Positions 10,396 through 54,429 of a DNA stretch of 64,000 bases are shown in pieces. The DNA lies in the NCBI GenBank assembly GCA_022340485.1, contig JAJDNX010000035.1:5985-69984 (forward strand), given 5' to 3'. Each line of letters starts with the position of its first letter. Position 1 is the first letter of the stretch. The notes under the pieces were generated by a model that saw nothing but the letters and a program-made list of their open reading frames with translations, was not told where the DNA came from and made no database searches. The position numbers were made by a program, and so were the translations under genes. Source of the stretch: Gammaproteobacteria bacterium. GTDB lineage: Bacteria; Pseudomonadota; Gammaproteobacteria; UBA9214.

Positions 10396-14026
<3,631 letters not shown>

Positions 14027-15052
14027 CTAGTTGCTGGCGGTTAGCTGGCGGTAGCGCAGGATATCTTCCATGTACTGTTGCTCGATGCTGGTCTTTTCCT
14101 GCCGCTTGAGTGCAAGCAATTCCTCGTTTTGCGCGATACTTTCCTGAACATTCTTCATCTGGCCGAGTAATACCTCGGGGCGCTTCTGGTCGCGGCTCTC
14201 ATATTCAACGGCCTGGTCTGAGAGATCTGCGAGATGATCCTGCAAGGATTGTATTCGTTCACTGGTGAGGGTTATCAGTTCATTAATTGTGGCAAGCTTC
14301 TGGTCGCGCGCCAGTACGATGTCCTCTTCCCCTTTATAGCTCGTTAGCAGCGCGCGGTCATGAGGGGTCAGATCAACATTCAGTTTGTTCTTGGTCTCTT
14401 TGCGATTCGCAATCCGTTGTGCAGGAGTTTCGCGATCTTCCTTATCGGCAGTCAGTTCGATAAATCGACTGATATCGTCAGCAAATTGATTGCCTATTTC
14501 TTCCAGTTCCTGCTCTTTCTCCTGAATAAAACCCTCGTTCCTGGTGATCTGTGAACGCAGGTTGTTGATTTGGGTTTCCACTGTGTGTGGCAGCGGTTTG
14601 CCACTGCGTTCATAGCTTGCAGCCTCCTCGGTCAGGCTGTGCAGGCGCTGTTTCATGGACTCGATGCGGCTGTTGGTCAGTTGTAGCAGTGCTTCAATGG
14701 AAGCAACCCTGCCATCTCTTGCAAGCAGCATATCCTGTTCACTTGTATACGTGGCAAGCAGGCTGCGGTCGTGAATCGCGCGTTTCTCATCAAGTGCCTT
14801 TTGTCTGGCCTCCCGTTCAGCTGCCTCCTGTGCTGCCACCTTTTCATCCGGGGTCATGGCCGCTTCGTAGATCTTGACCGTACGACCCTGTTCGTTGATT
14901 TCCTTGCGCTCCTTATTGGCATACTCGGGCGGCACACGGTTGCCATAGTGAACCTGGCCCTCGCTGTCTACCCACTTGAACACGCGTTCAGCAACTGCAG
15001 TGGTCGTCATCAGCAGTGCCAAGAGCAAAATAAAATAGCGAAAATTCTTCAT
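14027..15052 (-). CDS. secreted DUF4124-domain protein with internally duplicated coiled-coil region
   Basis: Signal peptide (MKNFRYFILLLALLMTTTAVA). DUF4124-like VFKWVDSEGQVHYGNRVP. Two ~110-aa repeats (SLLATYTSEQDMLLARD... / ALLTSYKGEEDIVLARD...) rich in E/Q/R/L heptads. Confidence 0.7.
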   Translation of the reverse strand: MKNFRYFILLLALLMTTTAVAERVFKWVDSEGQVHYGNRVPPEYANKERKEINEQGRTVKIYEAAMTPDEKVAAQEAAEREARQKALDEKRAIHDRSLLATYTSEQDMLLARDGRVASIEALLQLTNSRIESMKQRLHSLTEEAASYERSGKPLPHTVETQINNLRSQITRNEGFIQEKEQELEEIGNQFADDISRFIELTADKEDRETPAQRIANRKETKNKLNVDLTPHDRALLTSYKGEEDIVLARDQKLATINELITLTSERIQSLQDHLADLSDQAVEYESRDQKRPEVLLGQMKNVQESIAQNEELLALKRQEKTSIEQQYMEDILRYRQLTASN

Positions 15053-15137
15053 GTGTAGCGGCTATCCCGTTGCCATACCTGTATTCTATCTAGCCAACTT
15101 CGCAAACATATCTTTCTGCGCAAATGCAGGAGTAGCG

Positions 15138-15893
15138 GTGAACACTCTGGATCAACTTACCCTGTTTGTCGTGTCCCTGGTGGCCAACCTGTTTTCAGCC
15201 TTTTCAGGTGGTGGTGCCGGGCTGATACAGCTGCCGGTACTGATTTTCATGGGACTGCCATTTGCAATTGCACTGGCGACTCACAAGGTTGCCAGTGTCG
15301 CTCTGGGTATCGGCGCGACCGTGAGGCACTTGAGGGAGCAACCGCTGGAGGGTCGCCTGACCCTGTATATCCTTGTGTTTGGTTTGCCCGGTGTCATTAC
15401 CGGTGCAAATATCATTCTTGATGTCCCGGAGCAATCTGCCAGGGTTGCATTGGGTATCCTGACCGCCGGACTGGGGGTTTACTCATGGCTGAATCCCGAT
15501 CTGGGACAGCAGTTGCAAGCAGTACATCGGGACCGGCATGGCCATATCATTGGCGGCATAGTGCTGTTTGTAATCGGGGCTCTGAATGGTTCACTGACAT
15601 CCGGTACCGGCTTATTCGTGACAATGTGGCTGGTCCGCTGGTTTGGGCTGGATTACCGACGTGCAATTGCCTACACGCTGATCCTGGTGGGGGTGTTCTG
15701 GAATGCGACCGGTGCCGTGACACTCGGGCTGCTTGCCGATATCCGCTGGTCGTGGCTCCCGGCGCTGCTGCTCGGGTCATTGGTAGGTGGCTATCTCGGT
15801 GCACATCTGGCCATCAAGTCCGGTAATCGCTGGATCAAGCGTGTTTTTGAGATAGTGACCCTGCTGGTGGGAGCCAAGTTGATAGTTGGCTGA
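15138..15893 (+). CDS. sulfite exporter TauE/SafE (TSUP) family membrane protein
   Basis: Multi-TM with internal duplication typical of TSUP/DUF81. GTG start at VNTLDQ preceded by gcaggag RBS. The tool ORF starts earlier at 15051. Confidence 0.75.
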   Translation: MNTLDQLTLFVVSLVANLFSAFSGGGAGLIQLPVLIFMGLPFAIALATHKVASVALGIGATVRHLREQPLEGRLTLYILVFGLPGVITGANIILDVPEQSARVALGILTAGLGVYSWLNPDLGQQLQAVHRDRHGHIIGGIVLFVIGALNGSLTSGTGLFVTMWLVRWFGLDYRRAIAYTLILVGVFWNATGAVTLGLLADIRWSWLPALLLGSLVGGYLGAHLAIKSGNRWIKRVFEIVTLLVGAKLIVG

Positions 15894-24798: not shown

Positions 24799-26097
24799 TC
24801 AGTTCAGAGTGTATACAAGTTTTCCTGACAGCAGTGTGTGTGTAACCCGCCCTTTCATTTCCCAGCCCATAAACGGTGTATTCAGACCATGGCTCCGCAT
24901 TGTGCGGTTATCAAGCTGCCAGATGGCTAAGGGATCAAAGATACAGATGTCTGCCTCTGCATCGATCGACAGTGTGCCGTAGGGCAATCCAAGTATCTTC
25001 GCCGGCCCTGCAGTCAAGAGATAGATGAGATCGATGAGTTCCAGGGAATGCTCATCAACCAGCCGCAGACTTAGAGGCAGCAGTGTGTCTAGTCCCGAAA
25101 TGCCCGGTTCGGTGGCGGGAAACGGACCCAGTTTCGCATTGGGTTCGTGTGGCTGATGGTCTGAACAGATGGCTGATGCTATGCCCTGTTGCAAGGCCTC
25201 CCGTAACTGCTGCCGGTCTTCGACTGTGCGCAACGGGGGAATTAGATGGCAGAGGCTGTCAAAACCACTGATATCTACTTCAGAGAGATATAGATAAGGG
25301 ATGGCAACGTCTGCTGTTACCGGGATCCCGTCATATTGCGCGCGTGCGATCATTCTTGCGGCGCGACCGGTTGTCAGTCTGCAGAAATGTGCGCGTACGC
25401 CGGTTTGTTCGATCAATGCCAGGTCACGCGCGACGGCAGCGGTTTCTGCGGCTTCAGGTATACCGGGCAGGCCAAGACGAGTTGCAACCCTGCCCTCATG
25501 TACGCACCCTCCGTTTGCCAGCCAGTGATCATTGGGATACAGGAATACGGTAAGGTCAAAGGTGGCGGCATACTCCATTGCGCGTCGCAGTATCAACGGG
25601 TTGAGCAGCGGCTTCAGGGCATTGCTGACACCAACACAGCCGGCCTTGCGCAGTGCAGCCATTTCACTCAATTGCTCCCCGAGAAGGGACTGGGTGAGGG
25701 CACCCAGTGTAACTACCCGGGTATTTCCGGCAGCTTCAGCACGCAGTCGGATGAACTCGGTAACAGCTGGTGTGTCGATAACAGGATGAGTATCCGGCGG
25801 GCAACAAAGTGTAGTTATGCCTGCACTGGCAGCGGCGAGTGTTTCTGTAGCAATTGTGGCCTTCTGTTCCTGGCCCGGTTCTCTGAGACGGGCACTGACG
25901 TCTACCAACCCCGGACAGACGATGCGATGGTGGGCATCAATTTCCATATCAGCCTGAAAGTCTTGCGGCGCCTTGTCTAAGGCGATTACTTTGCCGTCTG
26001 CAATATAAACGTTCTGGACCCTGTCAACTTTGTTGGCCGGGTCAATTACCCGGCCTCCGCTGATCTGAATCCTTTGCGCTTTGTCATGTGCGTACAT
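24799..26097 (-). CDS. pyrC': dihydroorotase-like, probably non-catalytic PyrC'
   Basis: Amidohydrolase fold (PGLVDVSARLREPG), but the metal-binding HxH is replaced by S-A-R (DVSARL versus DVHVHL). Located directly downstream of pyrB as in Pseudomonas. Start taken at MYAHDK. Confidence 0.8.
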   Translation of the reverse strand: MYAHDKAQRIQISGGRVIDPANKVDRVQNVYIADGKVIALDKAPQDFQADMEIDAHHRIVCPGLVDVSARLREPGQEQKATIATETLAAASAGITTLCCPPDTHPVIDTPAVTEFIRLRAEAAGNTRVVTLGALTQSLLGEQLSEMAALRKAGCVGVSNALKPLLNPLILRRAMEYAATFDLTVFLYPNDHWLANGGCVHEGRVATRLGLPGIPEAAETAAVARDLALIEQTGVRAHFCRLTTGRAARMIARAQYDGIPVTADVAIPYLYLSEVDISGFDSLCHLIPPLRTVEDRQQLREALQQGIASAICSDHQPHEPNAKLGPFPATEPGISGLDTLLPLSLRLVDEHSLELIDLIYLLTAGPAKILGLPYGTLSIDAEADICIFDPLAIWQLDNRTMRSHGLNTPFMGWEMKGRVTHTLLSGKLVYTLN

Positions 26098-26101
26098 AAG
26101 G

Positions 26102-27076
26102 CTAGCCTGGGGTGACTTCTTTACGTGCCATGGCCATCGACATGACTGCCATCCGCACTGCAATGCCGTGAGTAACCTGTTCAAGGATTACGGAGCGCGG
26201 ACCGTCGGCTACCTCGGAGTCCATTTCAACTCCACGGTTAATGGGCCCTGGATGCATTACAGTGACGTCCGGACTGGCATGGCCGAGCTTTTTTTCTGTT
26301 AGTCCGAATAGCTCGAAATACTCGTGCTCGCTGGGTAGAAAAGCACCTTGCATGCGTTCCCTCTGCAATCGCAGCATGATAATAACGTCCACGTCCTTTA
26401 TGCCGGCCTGAAGGTTATGGTAAACCTGAGCGCCCAGTGATTTGGCGTCTGCAGGAAGCAGTGTTTTCGGTGCGACAATCCGGACTTCACCGGTGTTAAG
26501 AGTGTTCAGTGCATGAATCTGGGAACGTGCCACACGCGAGTGCAGGATATCACCTACAATCGCAACACGCAGTGAACCAAAGTCCGCTCCCTTAACGCGA
26601 CGTATGGTAAACATATCGAGCATTGCCTGTGTCGGGTGCGAATGCCAGCCATCACCGGCATTGATGACACTGGTATGCGCTGCTGCATTGGCTGCAATGA
26701 AGTGAGCAGCGCCGCTGTCAGCATGCCGAACAATAAACATGTCAACGTGCATGGCTTCAAGGTTGCGCAGTGTGTCAAGCAGGGTTTCACCCTTAACGGT
26801 ACTGGACTGTGTGATGTTAATATTCAGGACGTCGGCTGACAGTCGCTTCGCCGCCAGTTCAAATGTGGTGCGGGTACGTGTGCTGGCCTCAAAGAAGAGA
26901 TTAACGATGGTTTTACCACGCAACAGCGGCACTTTTTTAACAGTTTGTTCTGTTACGCCGGCAAAGGATTCTGCCGTATCGAGTATCTCGGTGAGTAAGT
27001 GGTGATTCAGCCCGTCTATCGACAGAAAATGACGCAATCGCCCGTTTTTGTCTAGTTGCAGGGTGTTACCGCTCAT
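26102..27076 (-). CDS. pyrB: aspartate carbamoyltransferase catalytic subunit
   Basis: STRTR and HPTQ motifs. 324 aa. Confidence 0.93.
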
Positions 27077-28643: not shown

Positions 28644-29501
28644 CTAGTGGCTCTTCAACTGGTTGGCCGTGGAGAATTCCCAGGTTCTTGTAATGTGTAG
28701 GATATCAGCGTCTTTCATGATTTCAGAAGGAAACGGAGCGAAGGGGGCAGCCAGATTGACAATACGAACCGCTGCCTCATCAATCACCGTGTGTCCGGAG
28801 GGGCGCAAGATGTTGATGTTGCGTACAGTTCCATCGGCGTTCATGGTGACATCCATGATCAGTTTGCCTGACAGACCTTCCCGGCGCGCATCGTCCGGGT
28901 AATTCAGGTTGCCAACGCGCTCAACCTTTTTAACCCATTCATTCATGTAGTTGGCGTATTTGAATTCCTGAGTGCGTGCCGAGACATAGATGTGGCGAGG
29001 GCGCTGAGCATAGGCCTGCATGGATTCATTCAGTTGCTCATTCAGGTTGACCATTTCCTTGCTGCGTTCAATCAGGTCGATGGCTGTAATATCCGGTTTC
29101 TTGGTATCAGGATTTACCTTCTCCTCCTGGTGATGTTTTATCTCAGCTGCGTCCGTAGTAATAACTTGTGCAGGTGTAGGTGTCGCCTGTTGTGGTTTGA
29201 CGGCGGGCGCCTGTTCAGGGATTGCCTGTGTCGGCCTGACTTTTTCACTGGTATTTCCGCCTCCCTCCTGGCTCGATTGTGCCAGGTAGTCCGCCTCATC
29301 CGGTGCTGGCGTGCGACGATTGGACACAGTGATATCCAGTGTCGGCAGGATATTTTCAGGTGCCGGATCATCATGCAAACCAAAGGTTATGCCCAGGATA
29401 ATCATCGCATGAAATACGACAGCAAAAAACAGTGTCAAGGCCATGCGATCAATTGCCGTGACGGGAGACTTGTCGAGTATCGGTGTGTCTAGATTTTGCA
29501 T
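28644..29501 (-). CDS. tonB: TonB family protein (TonB3-like position next to yqgE)
   Basis: N-terminal TM, Pro/Ala/Gln-rich spacer, C-terminal TonB domain (GLSGKLIMDVTMNADGTVRNINILRPSGHTVIDEAA). Confidence 0.8.
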   Translation of the reverse strand: MQNLDTPILDKSPVTAIDRMALTLFFAVVFHAMIILGITFGLHDDPAPENILPTLDITVSNRRTPAPDEADYLAQSSQEGGGNTSEKVRPTQAIPEQAPAVKPQQATPTPAQVITTDAAEIKHHQEEKVNPDTKKPDITAIDLIERSKEMVNLNEQLNESMQAYAQRPRHIYVSARTQEFKYANYMNEWVKKVERVGNLNYPDDARREGLSGKLIMDVTMNADGTVRNINILRPSGHTVIDEAAVRIVNLAAPFAPFPSEIMKDADILHITRTWEFSTANQLKSH

Positions 29502-30010
29502 GGAGTGTTTTCACTGCACATTGTGCGTGCAATTATACCGCTGATAATTCCAAACAATAGTGCAGCTGTTAACAGGACAGGAAACAAGTGCCAGATAGCT
29601 GCATTTGGGATAAATATCAGCCATGCCAGCAAAAATTGCCCTGTCATGTGGGCAAGGGCGGCCAGCACACTGTAGCCAATTGCACCAAATCCCTCTCCCG
29701 GGAGTCGGCGGGCAAACCATAGTATTAGTACACTACATGCAGCTCCAGCCATGCTGAGGATAAAAGCTGGTGACAGAAAGGTCCCCAGTAGAAGGCTGCC
29801 GCAGATAACACGAAGCAGGCTCACCCAGGCTGCTGAGCGCCAGCCGAATTGCATTAGCACGGCAATGGTAATGACATTCGCGAGCCCCGGCTTTAGTCCT
29901 GGCAGGGGAGTGGGGATTGCACTCTCCAGTATATGTATGCTTATTGCCAGGGCAGTGAGCCCGGCAATTTGATGATCCTCGCGTGTCGTCTGTATTTGCA
30001 TTGAAACCAT
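29489..30010 (-). CDS. Gx-transporter family membrane protein (PF07456-like; EetB-like)
   Basis: About 170 aa, 5 TM. N-terminal ILESAIPTPLPGLKPGLANVITI plus SMAGAACS and AALAHMTGQ motifs, which I recognise as Gx family. 13-nt overlap with the tonB start. Confidence 0.6.
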   Translation of the reverse strand: MVSMQIQTTREDHQIAGLTALAISIHILESAIPTPLPGLKPGLANVITIAVLMQFGWRSAAWVSLLRVICGSLLLGTFLSPAFILSMAGAACSVLILWFARRLPGEGFGAIGYSVLAALAHMTGQFLLAWLIFIPNAAIWHLFPVLLTAALLFGIISGIIARTMCSENTPCKI

Positions 30011-30042
30011 GGCTTGCTTCGCATTCAACGCTATTCTAACTG

Positions 30043-30462
30043 TTACCAGCAATTGTTCCGCAGATACCTTGCATGCTCCTTGAAGGCGTCACGTCCCCTG
30101 GAAGCCTTGAGCAACACCCTGTTGTTGGCACAAGCGGCACGTCTCGCTGCTCTTTGACGATCTCTCTGCATTCTTGAGGTCTGTGCACGGCGCTGCTGTT
30201 GTCTCTGTCGGTGTTCAATTTCCGTGATCCGGTCTCGTTCACCCGGACGCAATCCACCCTCTCTTTGCACCCGTTTTGGTTCCTGTTTCAGGGTGATTGA
30301 TCTGATAGTAACGGTGTCGGGTGGCTTGTCACCATAGTGTATCTGACCCTGCTTGTCAGTCCATTGATAGGCGGTTTCAGTCGCGTTGGCCATGGCTGTC
30401 AGAATCAGGTTCAGGAGAGACAACATGGCCAGGATCTGCTTCGAAGGAGTCTTCTTTTTCAT
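30043..30462 (-). CDS. secreted DUF4124-domain protein with Arg/Gln-rich C-terminus
   Basis: Signal peptide. AYQWTDKQGQIHYGDKPP (DUF4124). Paralogue of the N-terminal domain of 14027..15052. Confidence 0.65.
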   Translation of the reverse strand: MKKKTPSKQILAMLSLLNLILTAMANATETAYQWTDKQGQIHYGDKPPDTVTIRSITLKQEPKRVQREGGLRPGERDRITEIEHRQRQQQRRAQTSRMQRDRQRAARRAACANNRVLLKASRGRDAFKEHARYLRNNCW

Positions 30463-30733
30463 TGTAATTTAACAAAATATTTCTTCACTACTCTGAATGG
30501 AGTGTTAAACAGTCGCTCTACAAGCTACTCATATTGTGGTCCTCGGACTAGGGGTTAGGTCGCATCTGGCGATAGGAATGATCCGGATCAGGCAGCTAAA
30601 GTGAATGGGAGTAACGCCGATGATTTTTTCCAAGCATCAAAAAAATCAGGGTGTTAACAAGGAAACAATAAAGGGCATATGCCCGGGATAACCAGCAGGA
30701 TGAATGAACCGATTGAGACCAGGTAAGTAAAGT

Positions 30734-31135
30734 ATGGTTCAGGCTACACTGCGTTTCGGCCGCATTGGTCGTTTTTTGACTGCGCTGGTGATCTGGTTCC
30801 ATCCAGTTGCTACAGTGCAGGCAGAGGATGATTATCTCAGTATCTTGGAGGCAGAGGCCGCGGACACTGCTGTGGAGACTGATTTTGTCTCGTCGCCAGT
30901 CGGTGGAAATCAAGTTAACAACAGGTTCATGGGCACCACGGCAGACAAGGTTATTGTGCCGGGGTTGAGCTTCGAAGATTTTGAAACTGAACTGAGCACC
31001 CGTTACTCCGGCAGTCATTCCCTGTATGTGAAGCTATCCGAGAAAAAACGTAGGGAGGTCTTCGCCCATTATCAGAGTGATAACCGAATTTCATCCGTAC
31101 GCGAAGAGATAGTGCGGCTCCTGTCATCGGGTTAA
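30734..31135 (+). CDS. small secreted protein of unknown function
   Basis: 133 aa with signal peptide ending VATVQA, acidic. Upstream of the rhodanese gene with a 35-nt gap. The overlapping minus-strand ORF 30596..31018 was rejected. Confidence 0.5.
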   Translation: MVQATLRFGRIGRFLTALVIWFHPVATVQAEDDYLSILEAEAADTAVETDFVSSPVGGNQVNNRFMGTTADKVIVPGLSFEDFETELSTRYSGSHSLYVKLSEKKRREVFAHYQSDNRISSVREEIVRLLSSG

Positions 31136-31170
31136 TTACCGTAAGTCGAAATTGTAAAAGGAATATCTTT

Positions 31171-31926
31171 ATGAAACAGCCTTTAGTTAAATTATTCAAG
31201 GTCATAGCGCTAGTAACCGCTGGATTTCTTGTCAATTCAAATGCCACAGCCATTAATGTCAAACTAACCGATTACCTCGCATATATCGATGTAGACCATG
31301 GTGGTGAACAGGTCCGGGTACAGCGAATCCAGGATGTGGAACACAAACTGGATGACGGCTTTGCGAAAACATCTCGCAAATGTCCACCCTTCTGCATCCA
31401 GCCAATGAAGGTGGCTCCAGGTGTGACTACCATCGGTGAAGCTGAAATTTTCCGCTTCATGGACCGCGAACTTGCTTCTGGAACTGGATTGATTATAGAT
31501 GCACGAACTTCGTCCTGGTATCAGAAAGGGACGATTCCGGGCTCAATCAATATCCCATTTACAAATTTCACTGCGAGTGAAGAGGCACCTGAAACCATCA
31601 AGGCGCTGGAGACAACTGGTGCCGTGCGACGCGGTGAAACCAGCTGGCTAATACGAAGTTTCGAGAAGCTGATGGCCAAATTTGGATTGTTTGGTGCGGA
31701 CAAGAAAACCGATAAATGGGATTTCTCAAATGCTAAAAAACTGGTGCTATGGTGTAACGGTCCCTGGTGTGGACAGTCTCCTCGTGCAATCAAGGGGTTG
31801 CTCGAACACGGTTATCCTGCTGAAAAAATTGCCTATTACCGTGGTGGTATGCAGATGTGGAAAGTGCTCGGCCTGACCGTGGTAATCCCCGAAAATACAG
31901 AAGCTGTTGTGATGAAGTCGCGATGA
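31171..31926 (+). CDS. periplasmic rhodanese-domain sulfurtransferase-like protein
   Basis: Signal peptide. Rhodanese hallmarks GTIPGSINIP and active-site loop WCNGPWCGQSPR. Additional N-terminal ~100-aa domain with CPPFC. Confidence 0.7.
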   Translation: MKQPLVKLFKVIALVTAGFLVNSNATAINVKLTDYLAYIDVDHGGEQVRVQRIQDVEHKLDDGFAKTSRKCPPFCIQPMKVAPGVTTIGEAEIFRFMDRELASGTGLIIDARTSSWYQKGTIPGSINIPFTNFTASEEAPETIKALETTGAVRRGETSWLIRSFEKLMAKFGLFGADKKTDKWDFSNAKKLVLWCNGPWCGQSPRAIKGLLEHGYPAEKIAYYRGGMQMWKVLGLTVVIPENTEAVVMKSR

Positions 31927-32013
31927 AATGGATTGCGGGTTTTGTCCTGTAAGTGGCGGTTTTGGAACCCATTTACACAAGGCTAGTACAAATCATATAT
32001 GGGACCTACAACG

Positions 32014-32373
32014 TTAAAAATTTATTGCATCATAATGCCGGTGTTGGGCGGAGAGACTCAGACTAATACGGTTAGGCAAGCAAGCACTGAACTCGCCTGT
32101 GCTTGATAGCCAGCCACTATGTACGCAGACCTGTGATTTACACGGGGAACTGAAAAATCGCGCACGACCATCCCTGATTTCGATAACGCTCTCGCCGAGT
32201 GGACCCGCTACATGCAACATACGGTCAGGATGTAGTGTCGCGGTAAACGGATTGTGATTACCACTATGAACAACAATGAAGTCCGCTGGCTCACTAACAG
32301 ACCAGAGGTGTACATACAGAAAGGGCAGGGTACATACGATCACCAGTATCAGTATGCGGTCGGCGCGGGTCAT
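32014..32373 (-). CDS. small membrane-anchored NusG-II-like (DUF1312/EetA-like) protein
   Basis: 119 aa, N-terminal TM. C-terminal PCKSQVCVHSGW...ACLPNRISLSL matches my recollection of the stand-alone NusG_II family motifs (CPxKxC ... CLPN). 4-nt overlap with apbE. Confidence 0.55.
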   Translation of the reverse strand: MTRADRILILVIVCTLPFLYVHLWSVSEPADFIVVHSGNHNPFTATLHPDRMLHVAGPLGESVIEIRDGRARFFSSPCKSQVCVHSGWLSSTGEFSACLPNRISLSLSAQHRHYDAINF

Positions 32374-33419
32374 TGTAGTGGTGCACTCAGGATTATATTT
32401 GCCTGCATTCCAGATTCAAAATGTATGCGTGATCGCATTGCCGGATTCATGTGAATGTTTCCATGGGTGTCTATTAGCATGACATACTGTATGCCCATAT
32501 TCTGTGCCGTCGATAGCCAACCATCCGGACCGGCAACAAATAATGCGGTGGCTGCTGCATCTGCTGTGGCCGCATCGCTGTGAATTACGGTAACTGAAGC
32601 GGTATTATTTGCCGGATAGCCAGTGCGGGGGTCAATAATATGGTGATAGCGTTTACCATCTACCTCGAAAAAGCGTTCATAGTCTCCGGACGTGAAGACG
32701 CTGGCATCACCTGAGATTTCTAGGCTGGCAAGTATGCCGGATTGCCGTGGGTCTCGAATACCGATTCGCCAAGGTCGTTCACCATGCTGGCCAATAGCGC
32801 GCAAGTCACCACCGGCATTGATGATGGCATTATGGATGCCCGACTCGCGCAAACGCTCAATGGCACGGTCGATTGCATAGCCCTTGGCAAAGCCGCCCAA
32901 GTCGTAGGAGACAGACGGGTTTTGGTTGGAAATGATGTTGTCGTTGATGGTTACATCCTCGACGGTGGGGTGAAGATCAACCAGTTCTTTGATAGCCACA
33001 CTGTCGGGTAACATACCAACCGGTAGGGCGTTGTCGTGAAAGCCCCATAGCTCGACGAGGTTTCCGATGACCGGGTTGAACAAACCTGAGCTCAACCGGG
33101 ACAGCCGGTTGGCTTCCTTGAGTAACTGCAGCAGGGATGGTGTGATCGTGGTTGCTTCGAGATTTGCCAGATGGTTGTTAAGAGATACCAGTGGACCAGG
33201 TTGCCAGGCATGCCAGCGGACATGCATGTCCATAAAATCTGCTTCAATTTTCCTGCATATTGATTCGGCAAGCTGCTGTTCCACGCCGTATAGGCTGACG
33301 TCAATGAGTGTACCAAACGAAAAAAACTGGTCGTGAAAGACCCGGTCCTTATTCTGGTCGCAAGCGCTGATTGAGAGCGATAGCAGTAGACAGGCCACTC
33401 GAATGCACTGTTTTTTCAT
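32370..33419 (-). CDS. apbE: FAD:protein FMN transferase ApbE (lipoprotein)
   Basis: Lipobox LSISAC. ApbE-family length and composition. 4-nt overlap with upstream gshB. Confidence 0.8.
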   Translation of the reverse strand: MKKQCIRVACLLLSLSISACDQNKDRVFHDQFFSFGTLIDVSLYGVEQQLAESICRKIEADFMDMHVRWHAWQPGPLVSLNNHLANLEATTITPSLLQLLKEANRLSRLSSGLFNPVIGNLVELWGFHDNALPVGMLPDSVAIKELVDLHPTVEDVTINDNIISNQNPSVSYDLGGFAKGYAIDRAIERLRESGIHNAIINAGGDLRAIGQHGERPWRIGIRDPRQSGILASLEISGDASVFTSGDYERFFEVDGKRYHHIIDPRTGYPANNTASVTVIHSDAATADAAATALFVAGPDGWLSTAQNMGIQYVMLIDTHGNIHMNPAMRSRIHFESGMQANIILSAPLQ

Positions 33420-34366
33420 TTTTCCAGACGATTAGCAATACTATCAAGTAATTGTCCGGCAATGTCTGCGTTATAGATCGAATCGAGTTCGCGTATGCAG
33501 GTTGGGCTGGTGACATTGATTTCTGTCAAATAATCACCAATGACATCCAGGCCGACAAATAGTAGTCCCTGCTCACGTAAGAATGGGCCTACCTGCTCGC
33601 ATATCCAGTAGTCTCGCTCGCTAAGATCCACACCCACACCTGTGCCTCCGGCAGCCAAATTGGCGCGTGTTTCACCGCTTGCCGGTATCCGTGCCAATGC
33701 ATGTGGAAATGGTTCTCCGTCAACCATGAGGATGCGCTTGTCTCCAGCCGATATTTCCGGGATATAGCGTTGCGCCATGGTGCTTTTCGTGCCGTTATTG
33801 GTGATCGTCTCAAGAATGACATTCAGGTTTGGATCATTTTTCCGGAGACGAAACACCGAGGCGCCACCCATGCCATCAAGTGGCTTGAGGATAATGTCAT
33901 CATGCTCATGAAGAAATTCCTTTAAACGAGTCATATCACGACTTACTCGTGTAGGCGGACCACATTGTGAAAACCATGCCGTGTAAAGTTTTTCACTGGC
34001 ATTCCGAATGGCAGCAGGGCTGTTAACTACAAGTACACCGTATGCCTCGGCTCGCTGCAGCATGAAAGTCGTATAGATGAATTCCATGTTCACGGGAGGG
34101 TCCTTGCGCATCAGGATGACATCGAGCTTGTCAAGAGGGGCTGTGAATTTGTCCGACAGGGTATACCAGCTATTTTCATCATCCCTGACATCAAGATATG
34201 TCATTAACGCATGGCAGCGATCACCTTCCAGAAACAGGTCATGCTGTTCCATATAGTGCAATTCCCATCCACGCTTCTGGGCTGCCAGCAACATTGCTAG
34301 TGAACTGTCCTTGTGGACTTTAATAGACCCGATGGGATCCATGACGATGCCTAGTTTTATGCTCAT
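33416..34366 (-). CDS. gshB: glutathione synthetase
   Basis: MSIKLGIVMDPI...ILKPLDGMGG...TEINVTSPTC, near-colinear with E. coli GshB. Confidence 0.93.
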   Translation of the reverse strand: MSIKLGIVMDPIGSIKVHKDSSLAMLLAAQKRGWELHYMEQHDLFLEGDRCHALMTYLDVRDDENSWYTLSDKFTAPLDKLDVILMRKDPPVNMEFIYTTFMLQRAEAYGVLVVNSPAAIRNASEKLYTAWFSQCGPPTRVSRDMTRLKEFLHEHDDIILKPLDGMGGASVFRLRKNDPNLNVILETITNNGTKSTMAQRYIPEISAGDKRILMVDGEPFPHALARIPASGETRANLAAGGTGVGVDLSERDYWICEQVGPFLREQGLLFVGLDVIGDYLTEINVTSPTCIRELDSIYNADIAGQLLDSIANRLEK

Positions 34367-38188: not shown

Positions 38189-41100
38189 ATGCATGAAGCT
38201 ATAAATTACAACGCGCTCAGCTGGATTCGCCAGGAACTTGGGGAAACCATTAAACAAGCGCGCTTGCTGCTGGAAGAGTATGCTGCAGACCCGACCAACG
38301 AGGCGCCATTGCATCATTGTGTTAAACAATTGCATGAGGCACTTGGTCCTCTGAAAATGGTGGATATCAGGGGGGCTGTACTGCTAGTCACAGAAATGGA
38401 GGAGGTTGTGGCAGACCTGCAGCAGGGAATCCTTGTGCAAGCAGATTCTGCAATGGAACAGTTGATGCAGGCATTTCTGGTGTTGCCAGATTATCTGTCG
38501 AGTATCCAGCCAGCTGGACGGGAAAATCCGGATATTCTACTGCATTTGATTAATGATCTTCGTGCAACCCGCGGTGCACAACTACTGCAGCAAAAGGACA
38601 TTTTTTCACCGAATCTATCAGTGCGGGTTCCAATTTCAGTTTTTGATGTTCGCGCAGAGCCCGCCATTCAGGATGTGTCATCCATGGCGCGTGCTGCGCG
38701 CGTTCGCTTTCAGAGTGGATTACTGGAATGGTACAGAGATGCAGATGGTAATGCTGGCTTGCAAATCCTGATAGATGTGCTTGAACATTTGCAACACTGT
38801 GCAGCCAGTGAGCCGGCGGCACGCATCTGGTGGGTGGGGGCCGGTGTGGCAGAGGCGCTCCGTGACGGGATGTTGGAAACTACCCCTGAAACGAAACAAC
38901 TGTTTGGTCAGCTTGATCGTCAGATCAAGCGTTTGTTGGATGCAGGGGAAGCAGTGTTTGACGATGTTCTGTCAGATGACCTTATGAAAAGCCTGTTATT
39001 CAGAATAGCACAGGCAACATCGGTTTCAGACAGGATCAGATTAATCAGGGAAACATACGAAATCAAGCAGCTCGCAGCAATCAGTGGTGCGACTGAATCA
39101 GCAAGTGATGGACTGGTTTCGTGCAATGAGGAACTGATGGGGACAGTTGCCGTTACCGTTTGCAGCGACATCAATCGTATCAAGGAGAATCTGGAAGACT
39201 ATAAAAAACATAATGATGATGCACAATGTTATATACCAATAGCAGATGAAATGCATGCATTGTCAAATACGCTTGGCATGATTCAGAGGGGAGTGCATGC
39301 TGAGGCAGTTGCTGAAAGGGAACGGGAACTCCGCGAGGCGATACACTGTAATACTACGCCTGAGGAATCCTGGTTCGTGCTGGTTGCGAATACGCTGGTA
39401 TCCGTTGAGGATGCACTTGATGATTTTGCTGCAGAAAATCCGGAAGGCAGTATATTAATTCAGGGGTTCAGCGCAGTTATGCAGGAAGTACTTTCCTGCA
39501 TAGTTACGGCGAAGGATGCTATTAGTGACTTCATGAAGTCGTCTGACAACGTCGAGCATTTATCTGCTGTTCCTGAGCTACTCAATCAGGTCTGCGGTAG
39601 TTTGAGATTAACAGGGCTGGACAGGGCGGCTGCTGCAGCCGATCAGGTCAGACTTTTCATACTGCAAGAGCTGATAGAAAGGCAGCAAACACCTTTTGAA
39701 GACCAGCTCGATTATCTGGCAGATGCAATCTGCAGTATCGAGTTTTATGTAGAGGAAGCGGCTGTGAATCACAAGTATGCTGGTGCTGCGCTGGATGTGG
39801 CAGAAAAAAGCCTGGCGAAACTTGGATATACATGCGCAATAGTAGATGAGCTTTGCTGTTCCTCGGGTGCAAGTGATATAGCCGAGCAATCGGTACCGGT
39901 GCTGGTTGCCGGAGAAAATGCAGAAGGTGATTCAGAAACGGAGACAATTGATTGTGGTCAACAAGATGCTGATGTTGATGATGTGTTAGAGATTGCAGGT
40001 TTGCAGACTATTGCGCCTGATGTCGATGAGGAAATCCTTGAAATCTTCATAGAAGAAGCAGACGAGGAATTGCAGAAACTAACTGCGCTAATTCCAGTGT
40101 GGACTGCAACAGGTGATGAGAAAGAATATCTAGTCGATATACGACGCTCCTTTCATACATTGAAGGGCAGTGGCCGTATGGTTGGTGCCCTGGCGGTTGG
40201 GGAATTCGCTTGGGCTATTGAGAATCTGGTCAACAAGGTGCTTGATGACACACTGGAACCGCATGATGCCATCAAATCGGTGCTGTACGATTCTGTGTCT
40301 GGCCTTGAACAGTTGCTTAGGCAGGTTAAAGATGGCGTGATTAGGCATGAAGTGGATGTTAACGATATTGCCAGACGTGCGCTACACTATAGTGACCCCT
40401 GTGTAACCACTACTGGATGGGCTTCTGCAGAGGTGGATGAGGATGTTGTAGCTCCTGCCACAGAAGAGCAGCAGACAGAACACATATCCAGAGCCGATAA
40501 TGAGGCTGTAGAAATATCACAGAGTAATCCGCAGCCATCTGTGGAGTTTCCCGTGCTGTCAAGTGAGGCAGATTCAGAAATCGTAGAGATATTTCTGGAG
40601 GAGGCCGCAGATGAAATCACCAACCTTGCTACGGCAATTCCTGCCTGGCTGGATCAGGCCGTTGTTAACGACGTGCTCGCCGATATACGTCGGAGCTTCC
40701 ACACGCTCAAGGGTAGTGGCCGAATGGCTGGTGCAATGTTGATTGGCGAATTTTCATGGTGCTTGGAGAATTTGTTAAACAAAGTAATGGATGAGACTGT
40801 ATCGGTAACTGAACCGCTGCGCACATTTCTGGCAAAAGTTCCTGGTGCCTTGTCGCAACTGCTTGTCCAGGTACGGGGTGATGGTGATCCGGTCATAGAT
40901 ATTGCATACATGATGCAGGAAGCAGCTGCATTGTCGCGTGGTGAGGCTTTTGATACAGAACTGTTGGATGAGATTACCGATAGCACAGATGCTGATGAAG
41001 TGCTGGCCGAAGTAGTTGTGGAGCAGTATGCGGAAGACATCCCTGTGGACAATGTGGAAGATGAGGCGTCGCTGCTGGAAATATTTAGCGCAGAGTGTAG

Positions 41101-44100
41101 GGTGCATTTACAGGCCATAGAGGAGTTTACTGAAGAAAACGATGGGTCGTGCGTAGTCAGTGACTCTCTGTATCGAGCTTTGCATACCTTATCAGGCATA
41201 TCGGAGTCAGCTGAAATAGTTTCAATCCGTGATCTGGCTGGTCATTTGAACGACTATTTTTCCGAGTACTACCATACACAGCATCTTGTTAATAAGAATG
41301 CAGTTGATGTGTTGCGCGCATGTACCTCTGAGCTTGCTGCTGCAGCACAGCAATTGCCGGATCTCGTGTTTGACGAGGAAAATCGCAAGGTATTGCATGA
41401 TCAGATAGCTGCACTCCCCCGTGCAGGCGAACAGACCGGTGAACAGGATGTTGTCTCAAGCATTCCAGGACCTGTCGAGTCCGAATTGAATGTTTCTGCG
41501 GTAGATCATGTTGAGGCAGTTGACACAGTCATAGCAGCTGAGCCTGAACCATTTTCGGATATGGATCCGGAACTTTATGAAATATTCGTTGAAGAAGCCT
41601 CGGAGATCATAGATAGCAGTGAGGTGACACTGCGTGCATGGTCAGAGGAGCCACAAAACAATGAATATATGACTGAATTCCAGCGTCAGTTACATACCCT
41701 AAAGGGTAGTGCGCGTATGGTTGATATTCAGGCAATCGGTGATTTGAGTCATGTGCTTGAATCATTGATTACACGCATAGCAGACGGGTTGATTGCAACG
41801 TCTGATGAACTATTCGCACTCATGCAGGAATCACAAGACCACCTATCAGAGATGCTGGAGCAGGTCAAGGTACGGCAAATGCCGGCAGGCGCAACTCAAC
41901 TGCAGACCCGTCTGGATGCGCTCTGGGAAACCGGGACGGTAACCGTTTCACAGGACGACGGTGAAACAGCAGCCGTGGTGGGTCATGAGACAGCTTCTGA
42001 GAATGATCATCTGAGTGGAACCCTGCCATTAGATGGGGATGTCCAGCTAGTAGAGGTAGTCCAGGCAATAGAGGCAGTTCAGGCAGAAGAGACAGTCCAG
42101 GCAACAGAGGCAGTTCAGGCAGAAGAGACAGTCCAGGCAACAGAGGCAGTCCAGGCAGAAGAGACAGTTCAGGAAGAGGAGTCAGTTCCGGTAGAAGCAC
42201 CTTTGCAAGACGAGGATGTTGCGTTGATGCCAACCATGGATGGAGCCGATGCATCAGGCTGTGACACTCAATCAGTTCATGAACTGAATGCTGAGATTGA
42301 GTTGTCGGTGCCTAAACATCTTTCCCTTCCGCAAAAGAAAGAACAACAACAGGTGCGAGTCCATGGTGAACAGGTCAGGGTGCAGTCTACCTTGCTTGAT
42401 GACATGGTGAACTACGCAGGAGAAATCAATATTTACCGTTCACGTATGGAACAGCAAGTGAGCGACTATCGTTACAATCTCGCTGAGCTGGATCAGACAA
42501 TTACTCGTTTGCGTGACCAGTTGCGCCAGCTGGAGATGGAGACAGAAGCGCAGATACTTTATCGCTATGAACAGGAGGTGGATGCGAGCAACCAGGAATT
42601 CGATCCGCTTGAAATGGACCGTTACTCGAACCTGCAACAAGCATCCCGCTCACTGATAGAAAGCATTAGTGATTTACGCAGTCTCCAGGATCTTATGGAG
42701 AATACTACCCGTGAATCAGAGACACTGTTGTTACAGCAATCACGAGTCAGTACTGATCTTCAGGAAGGTCTGATGCGTTCCCGGATGATACCTTTTTCTG
42801 GTCTTGCTTCGCGATTGAGGAGAATTGTGAGGCAGTCGGCACGGCAGTTGGAGAAAAAGGTGGATCTTGAACTGTTTGGTGCTGATGGTGAAATGGACCG
42901 TACTGTGATCGACCGGGTCATTGCACCACTTGAACATATGCTGCGCAACGCGGTTGCCCATGGTATCGAGCTGCCGGAACAGCGAAAAGCGGTGGGTAAG
43001 AAGGTCGAAGGATTGATCACGATAAGCTTCGATCGAGAAGGGCCAGAAATTGTACTGCATATCGAAGATGATGGTGCTGGTCTAAATACCGAAGCGATTC
43101 GTGCACGTGCCCTGGAACAAGGTCTGATCGCGGAAGGCACGGAATTGTCGGATGATGATGTCATGCAGTTTATTTTGCAGACCGGATTTAGTACTGCAAC
43201 AGAGGTGACACAGATATCCGGTCGTGGTGTAGGAATGGATGTTGTTAATAGTGAGGTAAAGCAGTTGGGAGGGTCTCTGCACATAGAGTCAAAGGCAGGC
43301 CAAGGCACCATATTTACGGTACGTCTTCCCTATACGCTGGCAATAAATCAGGCATTGCTGGTCATGGCTGGCAATGAAACTTTCTGTGTGCCACTGGCCA
43401 GCATTGAGGGTGTCGTGCGTGCTAATTGTGAAGAACTACGTGCCTGTTACCGCGCTGATGACTGTCTTTATTATTATGCTGGGAATGAATACCAGCTCAA
43501 GCACCTTGGATCACTGCTGAATACTACCACTCCTGCTTGCGTAATCCAGAAACAGGTGCCGGTGTTACTGGTGCGAATTGGTGAAAAGCGAATTGCCATA
43601 CAGGTTGAGGCCCTGATGGGAAGTCGCGAGATTGTCATTAAGCCTGTAGGTGCACAGCTCAGTACAGTGGATTGCATCTCGGGTGCGACGATTCTCGGTG
43701 ATGGTCGTGTCGTGATGATTCTTGATATGGCGGCAGTGGCGCGAATGAATGTGCGTGCTCGCTTGCCGGAAGTACAGGTTGAAACAGATCAAGAGTCTCG
43801 GCTTGTAATAATGGTTGTGGATGATTCGATCACTGTTCGAAAGGTTACCTCACGCCTGCTTGAGCGCAACGGCTTCAGGATTCTGACTGCAAAGGATGGT
43901 GTCGATGCCATGGGGCAGCTACAGGATGTGGTGCCGGATATGATGTTGCTGGATATTGAAATGCCCAGAATGGATGGTTTCGAACTGGCTACACATATGC
44001 GTAACGATACACGTCTGAAGCATGTACCGATCATAATGATTACATCACGTACAGGCGACAAGCACAGGGAGCGTGCACAGCAAATTGGTGTGAATGATTA

Positions 44101-44185
44101 TCTTGGCAAACCCTATCAGGAAGGTGATTTGCTGAATTCCATTCATCACATAATTGGAGTGCCTGCAGCAGGAGAAGTTGCATGA
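38189..44185 (+). CDS. chpA: multi-Hpt hybrid histidine kinase ChpA (CheA-like)
   Basis: 1998 aa. At least three canonical Hpt motifs (HTLKGSGRM x2, HTLKGSARM) plus degenerate Hpt-like units. CheA dimerisation/ATPase region (GRGVGMDVV), CheW domain and C-terminal receiver domain (VVDDSITVRK...DIEMPRMDGF). Confidence 0.9.
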   Translation: MHEAINYNALSWIRQELGETIKQARLLLEEYAADPTNEAPLHHCVKQLHEALGPLKMVDIRGAVLLVTEMEEVVADLQQGILVQADSAMEQLMQAFLVLPDYLSSIQPAGRENPDILLHLINDLRATRGAQLLQQKDIFSPNLSVRVPISVFDVRAEPAIQDVSSMARAARVRFQSGLLEWYRDADGNAGLQILIDVLEHLQHCAASEPAARIWWVGAGVAEALRDGMLETTPETKQLFGQLDRQIKRLLDAGEAVFDDVLSDDLMKSLLFRIAQATSVSDRIRLIRETYEIKQLAAISGATESASDGLVSCNEELMGTVAVTVCSDINRIKENLEDYKKHNDDAQCYIPIADEMHALSNTLGMIQRGVHAEAVAERERELREAIHCNTTPEESWFVLVANTLVSVEDALDDFAAENPEGSILIQGFSAVMQEVLSCIVTAKDAISDFMKSSDNVEHLSAVPELLNQVCGSLRLTGLDRAAAAADQVRLFILQELIERQQTPFEDQLDYLADAICSIEFYVEEAAVNHKYAGAALDVAEKSLAKLGYTCAIVDELCCSSGASDIAEQSVPVLVAGENAEGDSETETIDCGQQDADVDDVLEIAGLQTIAPDVDEEILEIFIEEADEELQKLTALIPVWTATGDEKEYLVDIRRSFHTLKGSGRMVGALAVGEFAWAIENLVNKVLDDTLEPHDAIKSVLYDSVSGLEQLLRQVKDGVIRHEVDVNDIARRALHYSDPCVTTTGWASAEVDEDVVAPATEEQQTEHISRADNEAVEISQSNPQPSVEFPVLSSEADSEIVEIFLEEAADEITNLATAIPAWLDQAVVNDVLADIRRSFHTLKGSGRMAGAMLIGEFSWCLENLLNKVMDETVSVTEPLRTFLAKVPGALSQLLVQVRGDGDPVIDIAYMMQEAAALSRGEAFDTELLDEITDSTDADEVLAEVVVEQYAEDIPVDNVEDEASLLEIFSAECRVHLQAIEEFTEENDGSCVVSDSLYRALHTLSGISESAEIVSIRDLAGHLNDYFSEYYHTQHLVNKNAVDVLRACTSELAAAAQQLPDLVFDEENRKVLHDQIAALPRAGEQTGEQDVVSSIPGPVESELNVSAVDHVEAVDTVIAAEPEPFSDMDPELYEIFVEEASEIIDSSEVTLRAWSEEPQNNEYMTEFQRQLHTLKGSARMVDIQAIGDLSHVLESLITRIADGLIATSDELFALMQESQDHLSEMLEQVKVRQMPAGATQLQTRLDALWETGTVTVSQDDGETAAVVGHETASENDHLSGTLPLDGDVQLVEVVQAIEAVQAEETVQATEAVQAEETVQATEAVQAEETVQEEESVPVEAPLQDEDVALMPTMDGADASGCDTQSVHELNAEIELSVPKHLSLPQKKEQQQVRVHGEQVRVQSTLLDDMVNYAGEINIYRSRMEQQVSDYRYNLAELDQTITRLRDQLRQLEMETEAQILYRYEQEVDASNQEFDPLEMDRYSNLQQASRSLIESISDLRSLQDLMENTTRESETLLLQQSRVSTDLQEGLMRSRMIPFSGLASRLRRIVRQSARQLEKKVDLELFGADGEMDRTVIDRVIAPLEHMLRNAVAHGIELPEQRKAVGKKVEGLITISFDREGPEIVLHIEDDGAGLNTEAIRARALEQGLIAEGTELSDDDVMQFILQTGFSTATEVTQISGRGVGMDVVNSEVKQLGGSLHIESKAGQGTIFTVRLPYTLAINQALLVMAGNETFCVPLASIEGVVRANCEELRACYRADDCLYYYAGNEYQLKHLGSLLNTTTPACVIQKQVPVLLVRIGEKRIAIQVEALMGSREIVIKPVGAQLSTVDCISGATILGDGRVVMILDMAAVARMNVRARLPEVQVETDQESRLVIMVVDDSITVRKVTSRLLERNGFRILTAKDGVDAMGQLQDVVPDMMLLDIEMPRMDGFELATHMRNDTRLKHVPIIMITSRTGDKHRERAQQIGVNDYLGKPYQEGDLLNSIHHIIGVPAAGEVA
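42050..42182 (+). repeat. in-frame tandem 36-bp repeats (about 3.5 copies) inside chpA encoding EAVQAEETVQAT units
   Basis: gaggcagttcaggcagaagagacagtccaggcaaca occurs as two perfect adjacent copies (42071..42106 and 42107..42142), followed by a degenerate third copy and preceded by a partial copy. Confidence 0.85.
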
Positions 44186-49701: not shown

Positions 49702-50077
49702 CAGGAGCAAGATACCCGCATCACCGATAAGTTATTGTTATAGAGCAATAAAGCATGACGTGGTCAACGCATGCCCACTCCCATCCGTGCTATTGCCGTA
49801 TGAGGCAAACTAGTGGAAAATAGCGCGCCTTGCTACCGGGGACGAAGGCCTGATAGGCAACCGCAGATAAATTGCCCGGCCTGGACGACTCTATTGATTG
49901 TGAATGATGTGGATGCCTCAGTGCTAATAAACCGGCGCTGCAGGCTTTTTTTGTCGCCGTAACATCAGTTGTTATTTGTGGCAACGCATCATGCAGGTTC
50001 AAGCGGAACCCCCCGGTACGGCCACAGTGTGGCGATTTAAATATTTACAGAATTCAAAATCAGAACAGGAGAACAAC

Positions 50078-52066: not shown

Positions 52067-52147
52067 GATCTGCTCATCTGAAAATTCATGCTTGCCGCAT
52101 TACGTTGCGGGTTGGTTGATTTTTTATACAAACTGTCAAGGAGATAA

Positions 52148-53149
<1,002 letters not shown>

Positions 53150-53171
53150 GCGGGACTCAAGTCCGGCGACA

Positions 53172-53202
53172 GCATCTGTACTGCTGTCGCCGGGATACAG
53201 TT
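53172..53202 (+). other. perfect 12-bp-stem hairpin in the gap-pgk intercistronic region
   Basis: CCGGCGACAGCAtctgtacTGCTGTCGCCGG. No downstream T-run. Confidence 0.6.
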
Positions 53203-53250
53203 TGATCTACCCGATTGTTAAATTGATTAAATGAAATTTTGGAGTCGTCA

Positions 53251-54429
53251 ATGTCCGTGCTCAAGATGACCGATCTCGACCTTTCCGGTAAACGCACCCT
53301 GATACGTCAGGATCTGAATGTTCCCATCAAGGATGGCAAGGTTGCCAGTGACAAGCGCATCCGCGCGAGTTTGCCTACCATCGAATTTGCAATAAAGGCC
53401 GGAGCACGGGTCATGCTGATGTCCCACCTCGGGCGTCCCACCGAAGGGGAGTATGCCGATGAATTTTCCCTGCGCCCCGTTGCTGAACATTTATCTGGCT
53501 TGCTGGGCAAAGAGGTAAAGCTGGTCGCTGATTATCTTGAGCAGGCGCCGGAGCTGCATGACGGTGATGTCGTTCTGCTGGAGAATGTCCGATTCAACAA
53601 GGGTGAAAAGGCAAACGACGAGAGTCTTTCCAGAAAATATGCAGGCTTGTGCGATATTTATGTAATGGACGCATTCGGCACCGCTCATCGTGCGCAGGCC
53701 TCGACTCACGGTGCCGGCCAGTATGCACCTGTAGCATGCGCCGGGCCCTTGCTGGCCGGGGAACTGGAGGCACTTGGCAAGGCGCTGGACAATCCTGCCC
53801 GACCGATGGCAGCCATTGTGGGTGGCTCCAAGGTTTCCACAAAGTTAACAGTACTCGAATCATTGTCTGGTGTTGTTGATCAGCTGATCCCGGGTGGCGG
53901 TATTGCCAATACCTTCATAGCAGCCAGTGGCTACAATGTTGGCAAGTCGCTCGTTGAAGAAGACCTGATTCCCGAGGCAAAACGCCTGATGGAGGCGGCT
54001 CGTGCAAAGGGCGGTGACATTCCGGTACCAACGGATGTAGTTGTTGGCAAGGAATTTTCAGAGTCTGCCGAGGCAGTTGTGAAAAAGGTCGAGGATGTTG
54101 CGGATGATGACATGATCTTCGATATCGGACCCGAAACGGCCGCCAAATTTGCCCAGATGATGAAGAGTGCAGGGACCATTGTCTGGAATGGCCCGGTGGG
54201 TGTTTTCGAGTTTGACCAGTTCGGTGAAGGAACCAGGACCCTGGGCATGGCGATTGCTGAATCCGATGCCTTCTCGATTGCCGGCGGCGGTGACACGCTG
54301 GCTGCCGTCGATAAATATGGCATTGCGGACAAGGTGTCCTATATTTCAACAGGTGGTGGTGCTTTTCTCGAATTTCTGGAAGGCAAGAAACTTCCTGCTG
54401 TGGCCATGCTGGAAGAGCGGGCAAAATAG
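53251..54429 (+). CDS. pgk: phosphoglycerate kinase
   Basis: [25 protein letters not shown]. ggag RBS 7 nt upstream. Confidence 0.92.

Follow-up and report, generated by a model that had tools for sequence, protein, structure and literature searches.

Genes for a predicted flavin transferase, ApbE, and for two membrane proteins resembling EetA and EetB of the Listeria extracellular electron transfer (EET) locus lie between gshB and tonB in a stretch of 64,000 nucleotides (nt), hereafter the window, from a gammaproteobacterium of the UBA9214 lineage (contig JAJDNX010000035.1, positions 5,985 to 69,984 of the forward strand). Three further genes separate eetA from eetB: one for a DUF4124 protein, one for a rhodanese and one for a small secreted protein of 133 amino acids (aa), here called p133. 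Our analysis indicates that the locus is probably a gammaproteobacterial ApbE/EetA/EetB set, belonging to a core operon gshB-apbE-eetA-eetB-tonB-yqgE-ruvX, that has been split by an independent cassette. All positions below are those of the window.

On the reverse strand, gshB (33416-34366) heads a gshB-apbE-eetA unit. It encodes a glutathione synthetase with GSH-S_N and GSH-S_ATP domains (446 bits with the NCBIfam glutathione synthase model PRK05246) and overlaps apbE (32370-33419) by 4 nt; apbE in turn overlaps the eetA-like gene (32014-32373; 119 aa) by 4 nt, so that the coupling proposed in the initial annotation, made from the bare sequence and a list of open reading frames (ORFs), is seen at both junctions. 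The eetB-like gene (29489-30001; 170 aa) lies on the same strand as eetA, at a measured distance of 2.0 kb where the initial annotation gave about 2 kb, and overlaps tonB (28644-29501, reverse strand; TonB_C, 56 bits) by 13 nt. Its ORF is readable back to 30052; the likely start is 30001, and in identical contigs gene callers predict a product of 170-173 aa. The gene for the secreted DUF4124 protein (30043-30462, reverse strand; 139 aa, PF13511) lies 41 nt upstream of eetB. The forward strand carries p133 (30734-31135), followed by the gene for the secreted rhodanese (31171-31926; 251 aa, PF00581). Pfam scans covered about 28 ORFs of the window, all of them housekeeping genes apart from those of the locus; the other ORFs, mostly housekeeping and pilus genes, were scanned for motifs only. 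The gene positions first proposed, and the ApbE, NusG_II, PF07456, DUF4124, rhodanese, TonB and GshB assignments, all hold.

Judged by its motifs and lipobox, the window ApbE is probably an extracytoplasmic flavin adenine dinucleotide (FAD):protein flavin mononucleotide (FMN) transferase, and it is predicted to be a periplasmic lipoprotein. It matches PF02424 with 267 bits (cutoff 25.6) over profile positions 1-265 of 266, and its nearest relatives in the PDB, with E-values ranging from 1e-30 to 1e-46, include TM1553 (1.8e-46) and the Vibrio cholerae ApbE 6nxi (3e-40). The TSGDY, DLGGFAKGYA and TADA motifs (FAD/Mg) are conserved with respect to the solved structures, and the catalytic histidine, in GKRYHHIIDP, occupies in the alignment the position at which 6nxi and its mutant 6nxj diverge (V. 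cholerae H257). A lipobox, LSISAC, can be read at residues 15-20; it is common to most ApbE orthologues, while those of Nevskiales have an N-terminal hydrophobic or transmembrane anchor instead. We considered the aspartate at position +2 of the lipobox as an inner-membrane retention signal and dropped it, as this residue is not conserved and serine is the commonest at that position in orthologues.

The EetA-like protein combines a predicted N-terminal membrane anchor, a hydrophobic stretch at residues 7-24 that follows MTRADR, with a NusG_II domain (PF07009, 69.5 bits, cutoff 29.6). Its relatives in the PDB are 4esn (2.4e-6), 4obi and 3ld7, and its cysteines are shared with the solved Firmicute relatives. 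C78, C83, C98 and P100 do not vary among 21 homologues, and N101 hardly does. The initial annotation had described CPxKxC and CLPN motifs in this protein: CLPN is present, whereas the first motif reads PCKSQVC, giving C-x4-C...CLPN as the actual pattern. The EetB-like protein, a putative FAD carrier, is an ECF-S-like membrane protein that matches PF07456 with 142 bits (cutoff 30) over profile positions 1-146 of 147; a sequence search of the PDB returned no match for it. Both proteins are thus members, above the Pfam cutoffs, of the families to which they had been assigned. The likeness of the trio to FmnB, EetA and EetB is also sustained, since the literature equates the PF02424, PF07009 and PF07456 families with these proteins (PMC9973259): EetB is described there as the ECF-S-like PF07456 protein by Rivera-Lugo et al. 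2023, and Data Set S1 of the same work gives PF07009 the label EetA. Within the clade of the window, EetB is the most conserved protein of the locus, with 85-92% identity (61-78% for EetA), which argues that it is still under selection where the trio is split.

How common is this gene set, and in what arrangement? We scanned an alignment of EetA (a closer subset) against one genome per GTDB species; this survey, seeded on EetA alone, returned 80 loci, designated below by L and a number, whose neighbouring genes were found by tblastn with the window proteins. All 80 are gammaproteobacterial and include members of Ectothiorhodospiraceae, Chromatiales, Thiohalobacter, Thiohalophilus, Sulfuriflexus, Solimonas/Sinimarinibacterium, Marithrix and Thiomargarita, as well as a lucinid symbiont. 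A contiguous trio, with apbE upstream of eetA and eetB at most 600 nt downstream of it, occurs in 54 of the 80, and the co-conservation implied by the initial annotation is thereby found far beyond chance. The rhodanese gene directly follows eetA in nine loci, with eetB beyond it in eight and the contig edge in the remaining one (L016). The trio is split by other DNA in two loci, and apbE-eetA is found without eetB within at least 3 kb in five. The other ten are cut by contig ends, have eetA without apbE or, in L067, have eetB without detectable apbE.

The flanks of these loci are constant, with gshB upstream and tonB-yqgE-ruvX-pyrR-pyrB downstream. Tight spacing is frequent: of 78 loci, 65 have overlapping apbE and eetA; an overlap of eetB with tonB is seen in 42 of 61, and no more than 50 nt separate gshB from apbE in 59 of 70. 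Variation is concentrated in the eetA-eetB spacer, which is at most 150 nt long in 48 of 67 loci and reaches up to 8.1 kb elsewhere. In Escherichia coli K-12, rsmE, gshB, yqgE and yqgF are adjacent, and apbE-eetA-eetB-tonB is extra relative to that order, in a comparison that carries no polarity. Two lineages have arrangements of their own. In Nevskiales/Salinisphaerales (L048, L059, L060, L072, L084) tonB is absent, eetB directly abuts yqgE and ApbE has no lipobox; in Candidatus Marithrix (L064, L081) a lone eetA lies between an aminotransferase gene and ubiD, and its flanks, covered up to about 10 kb, contain neither apbE nor eetB.

The operon of the trio is already catalogued, and the window is largely an ordinary case of a published gene set. 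Data Set S1 of Rivera-Lugo et al. contains pilG / gshB-apbE-eetA-eetB-tonB-DUF179 in Alkalilimnicola ehrlichii (NC_008340.1, 391740-396152), eetA-eetB-tonB in Thioalkalivibrio and a cluster centred on eetB in a genome of Nevskiaceae; clusters of the A. ehrlichii type are tabulated in that work and not discussed in its text (PMC9973259). More generally, eetB was found colocalised with eetA in 3,328 of 4,214 genomes and with apbE in 2,169 of 4,214 (PMC9973259).

What distinguishes the window is the division of the trio. Among the 80 genomes, the rhodanese, p133 and DUF4124 genes lie between eetA and eetB in the window's clade only. The DUF4124 gene behaves as part of the downstream segment: every clade member has it 41-44 nt from eetB, loci that have lost eetB retain it upstream of tonB, and L015 has it but not the rhodanese pair. 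Other DNA has entered at the same place. In L018 (10360-18460), an unrelated insert of 8.1 kb between eetA and eetB carries genes for an M48 peptidase lipoprotein, a frameshifted pyruvate:ferredoxin oxidoreductase, a GltD-like oxidoreductase and a phosphoglucomutase; in L037, L052 and L062 the junction is a breakpoint, beyond which L052 and L062 continue with tig-clpP-clpX. The eetA|eetB junction is therefore a recurrent site of insertion or rearrangement. This insert and these breakpoints, together with the variable spacer, indicate that eetA travels with apbE and eetB with tonB. In the window, the insertion presumably leaves two separate transcription units, gshB-apbE-eetA and DUF4124-eetB-tonB, as the spacing suggests.

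Two proposals of the initial annotation have to be revised in this light. The whole block between tonB and gshB had been regarded as one insertion; it consists of an old, widely conserved operon segment and a younger insertion nested in it, two events of different age. The dispersed layout, taken as a feature of the module's design, is a secondary split of a trio that is normally contiguous (54 of 80 loci). Loss is also informative. The genes eetA and eetB were lost jointly, with apbE kept beside the rhodanese cassette, in L132, L141 and L145, which suggests that the two act as a pair; apbE likewise lies next to the rhodanese gene without eetA on the short contigs L134 and L143, the latter ending before the eetB position. 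Joint loss with apbE retained supports a paired, accessory role of EetA and EetB in supply.

Which proteins would ApbE modify? The motif [DS]xx[ST]GA[TS] is absent from every secreted window ORF of at least 80 aa, in agreement with the initial annotation, which had seen no client with a flavinylation motif in the window. The sole match in the window, D-x-x-S-G-A-T at residue 1828 of a ChpA-like histidine kinase (38189-44185, forward strand; 1998 aa), was rejected as a chance match because ChpA is cytoplasmic. An Rfam scan of the window matched no RNA family, and an FMN riboswitch is accordingly absent from it. Usual ApbE clients are subunits of Rnf or Nqr, or NosR-like proteins, and apbE is in many bacteria not encoded beside all its clients. 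On this general knowledge of ApbE, we place the clients outside the window, Rnf/Nqr-type subunits encoded elsewhere being most likely.

The trio is accordingly best seen as a module for flavin supply and flavinylation that serves clients encoded beyond the window. If its proteins work like their Listeria homologues, EetB would bind cytoplasmic FAD and carry it across the inner membrane. EetA, a predicted single-pass protein with a cysteine-rich, outward-facing domain, would be the conserved partner that assists EetB. The lipoprotein ApbE would then take the exported FAD and attach FMN to threonine or serine residues of periplasmic or membrane redox proteins. The Listeria EetB has been shown to bind FAD, and flavinylation of PplA depends on it when exogenous FAD is lacking (PMC9973259).

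Several observations weigh against this interpretation. Export of FAD by EetB has been demonstrated in Listeria only, where it depends on ECF-T (FmnA) and EcfA/A', and deletion of the Listeria eetA had no phenotype (PMC9973259). The window trio may be equated with the Listeria proteins at the level of Pfam families only. Genes for ECF-T/CbiQ or EcfA/A' were not seen among the window ORFs scanned, the one ABC ATPase among them being part of an ABC-2 system, and the Pfam annotation of the 10-kb flanks of L001, L003 and L005 lists no ECF-T/A genes. FMN_bind, Nqr/Rnf, DUF2271 and DUF3570 proteins were likewise not found among the scanned ORFs. A flavinylation cluster as outlined by Meheust et al. 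2021 combines apbE with a substrate and an electron-transfer component (PMC8238504), and the window ORFs scanned contain no substrate gene of the kinds concerned (FMN_bind, NqrB/RnfD, DUF2271 or DUF3570). Finally, promoter and terminator scans of the window did no better than on shuffled sequence.

If ECF energising genes are lacking nearby, how would FAD reach ApbE? A review of 2025 calls this route obscure (PMC12052999). EetA and EetB might constitute a self-sufficient route of FAD to periplasmic ApbE, without ECF-T/A and possibly driven or gated by way of the TonB-type proton-motive system, to which eetB is translationally coupled, an idea that we regard as doubtful and put forward tentatively. 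If true, such a route would resolve, as far as Gram-negative bacteria are concerned, the question raised in that review (PMC12052999).

A related possibility ties EetB to TonB instead of, or besides, ApbE: EetA and EetB would be energised or regulated through TonB3/PocAB, or would take part in TonB-dependent uptake or salvage of flavins or another cofactor. The stop codon of eetB overlaps the start of tonB in the 42 of 61 loci mentioned above, the overlap in the window being 13 nt; wherever the trio is split, eetB remains with tonB and eetA with apbE; the ECF-T/A genes are missing both from the window ORFs scanned and from the annotated flanks; and ECF-S proteins are normally importers. However, loci of Nevskiales keep apbE-eetA-eetB without tonB, and loci that have lost eetB still have tonB. 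Translational coupling is, moreover, common between unrelated neighbours in core operons, such as gshB and apbE. The window tonB was judged to be TonB3-like by its position next to pilGHIJ-chpA, and in Pseudomonas aeruginosa TonB3 (PocAB-TonB3) serves the placement of pilus and flagellum (PMC5285504). With this role in pilus placement and with pilGHIJ-chpA adjoining the locus, the linkage of eetB to tonB, conserved across loci in the order eetB-tonB-yqgE-ruvX-pyrR-pyrB, may be purely syntenic. We consider a functional tie between EetB and TonB unlikely.

Does ApbE flavinylate a client at all? Were it mainly an Ftp-type FAD pyrophosphatase, producing FMN for periplasmic flavin homeostasis, the lack of a nearby client would follow directly: among the ORFs scanned, no client gene was found in 64 kb, a point that also counts against the flavinylation module. 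Some ApbE/Ftp proteins do hydrolyse FAD, according to a review (PMC12052999), and the window protein scores 131 bits with the NCBIfam equivalog model of E. coli ApbE, below its cutoff of 498. Against this, the catalytic histidine of the transferase and the metal and FAD motifs are intact. The aromatic residue Trp72 at the switch position is a weak argument in the same direction: it aligns with Treponema pallidum position 55, and its reading hinges on 4xdt being the variant that we take it to be. Only 4% of genomes with apbE were left without a known substrate by Meheust et al. (PMC8238504). A pyrophosphatase as the main function thus appears distinctly improbable, and the flavinylation module with clients encoded elsewhere is the reading that we retain.

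The pair that splits the trio in the window has a distribution of its own. The rhodanese matches PF00581 with 44 bits (cutoff 22.2) at residues 101-231, and its mean column identity is 78% over 20 homologues. The CNGPWCGQSPR loop and the CPPFC region pointed out in the initial annotation are both present, and their four cysteines (C71 and C75 of CPPFC, C195 and C200 of CNGPWC) are invariant in this alignment. C195 follows LVLW and is the predicted active-site cysteine, placed where the central strand ends; C200 lies in the loop. A sequence search of the PDB returned generic rhodanese stretches only. The AlphaFold2 (AF2) model of this protein, with a mean predicted local distance difference test (pLDDT) value of 63 and less than 50 in the N-terminal CPPFC region, was set aside for fold search and for proximity of the cysteine pairs. 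For p133, always encoded directly upstream of the rhodanese, we found no Pfam or NCBIfam match. The N-terminus of p133 resembles a signal peptide, a DDYLSILEAEA segment and the C-terminal 60 aa are conserved, and a linker is variable; its AF2 model shows a four-helix C-terminal domain at pLDDT above 90, for which no fold match was obtained in the PDB.

We followed the pair in metagenomes by a scan with the rhodanese alignment and look-ups of contigs. The arrangement of the window recurs, including in contigs that are 100% identical. The rhodanese has matches of 100% in contigs Ga0316585_10027915 and Ga0316578_10094956, and p133 shares 100% identity with the product of LJE75_03395, encoded in an NCBI metagenome-assembled genome of an unclassified gammaproteobacterium. 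Contigs with gshB, another gene, the rhodanese/p133 pair, DUF4124 and tonB, and without apbE, eetA and eetB, also occur. Two loci still carry remains of the missing genes: in L122 (6712-6900), a relic of eetB corresponding to residues 1-29 and 125-170 lies in front of tonB, and in L088 (9983-10111) a fragment of apbE (residues 178-221, E 5e-5) lies next to gshB. These relics indicate that flavin genes were deleted from a locus that once carried them. The pair is found at 51-58% identity in unrelated sites as well: after pgeF/yfiH, by a REC-REC-GGDEF regulator and before clpB (L160, L163, L166, L168, L169). In these other contexts the p133 homologue is 25-35% identical, and L166 has a second rhodanese gene in tandem in which CEDALC replaces CNGPWC. 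Persistence after loss of the trio and occurrence at unrelated sites argue for an autonomous two-gene periplasmic cassette. Its nesting in the flavin operon is clade-specific and incidental, and we regard the rhodanese as a passenger of the operon rather than an ApbE client.

The initial annotation had counted the rhodanese and p133 as members of the flavin module or as its possible clients, and this does not withstand the comparison, as most genomes with the trio have no pair and the pair persists without the trio and elsewhere. An integrated module, in which the rhodanese, p133 or both serve the flavin genes (as non-canonical ApbE clients, for instance) and six genes were inserted together, could appeal to the nesting of the pair between eetA and eetB, seen in the window as well as in eight or nine related species genomes, to the strong conservation of the rhodanese with its four invariant cysteines and to the persistence of apbE next to it after loss of eetA/eetB (L132, L141, L143, L145), yet it is highly improbable, given that neither protein contains an [ST]GA[ST] motif, that the trio occurs without the pair in 54 of 80 genomes, that the pair remains where apbE, eetA and eetB have been deleted leaving relics, that it reaches unrelated contexts and that the eetA|eetB junction holds other, unrelated inserts.

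The surroundings of the locus match those of its relatives. Downstream of the core genes, on the reverse strand, yqgE, ruvX, pyrR and pyrB lead to pyrC' (24799-26184), while pilG-pilH-pilI-pilJ-chpA follow gshB on the forward strand. Three further features of the window were recorded. A second DUF4124 protein, of 341 aa (14027-15052, reverse strand), is encoded next to an abutting gene of the TauE/SafE sulfite-exporter family (15051-15893, forward strand). The 878-aa ORF at 10396-13032 (forward strand) has phosphoglucomutase/phosphomannomutase domains only at residues 428-864 and no Pfam match in its first 425 residues or so; its start is over-called or the ORF is a fusion. A contiguous putative tkt-gap-pgk-pyk-fba cluster occupies 49976-57095 (forward strand), as identified by reading the ORF translations.

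The core result is a correction: the six genes that look like one 'flavin plus sulfur' module fall into two units that are unrelated to each other. Each has an interest of its own. The gammaproteobacterial operon, without nearby ECF energising genes, offers a testable setting for the delivery of FAD to ApbE. The helical p133 and the four-cysteine rhodanese form a highly conserved, uncharacterised periplasmic pair that moves between sites, and merit their own study.

The EET locus of Listeria monocytogenes shares with the window the PF02424, PF07009 and PF07456 families, the linkage of apbE to eetA/eetB and an extracytoplasmic lipoprotein ApbE (Light 2018; PMC9973259). The window cluster differs from it in having no genes for FmnA (ECF-T), Ndh2, PplA or demethylmenaquinone (DMK) and no client, and in the splitting of its trio by 2 kb of unrelated genes; its host is Gram-negative, and its genes belong to a housekeeping operon with gshB and tonB. 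Further parallels are the clusters of A. ehrlichii, Thioalkalivibrio and Nevskiaceae, which have the same gene order, orientation and flanks (pilG; DUF179/yqgE) (PMC9973259). Clusters of the A. ehrlichii type are contiguous, whereas p133-rhodanese and DUF4124 separate eetA from eetB in the window. The Rnf-associated apbE/eetA/eetB clusters of clostridia (572 genomes, PMC9973259) likewise group supply and transferase genes. They include their client complex, Rnf, in contrast to the window, where none was found in the ORFs scanned over 64 kb.

Delivery of FAD into a Gram-negative periplasm, the job proposed here for EetB, is reportedly also performed by Bfe of Shewanella, said to be a MATE-family FAD exporter, which belongs to an unrelated family and is not known to be linked to apbE. 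Bfe is presumably the Gram-negative flavin exporter mentioned by Rivera-Lugo et al. 2023. For the cassette, the nearest point of reference is PspE, a periplasmic single-domain rhodanese of E. coli. The cassette protein resembles rhodaneses of this type in being secreted and in its rhodanese domain; it differs from PspE by an extra N-terminal CPPFC region of about 100 aa, an insert of about 50 aa in the rhodanese domain, a second cysteine in the active-site loop (CNGPWC) and an obligate upstream partner, p133. The window tonB, lastly, resembles by its position tonB3 of P. aeruginosa, also without adjacent exbBD and near pilGHIJ-chpA and pyr/ruvX/yqgE (PMC5285504), and differs from it in being translationally coupled to eetB.

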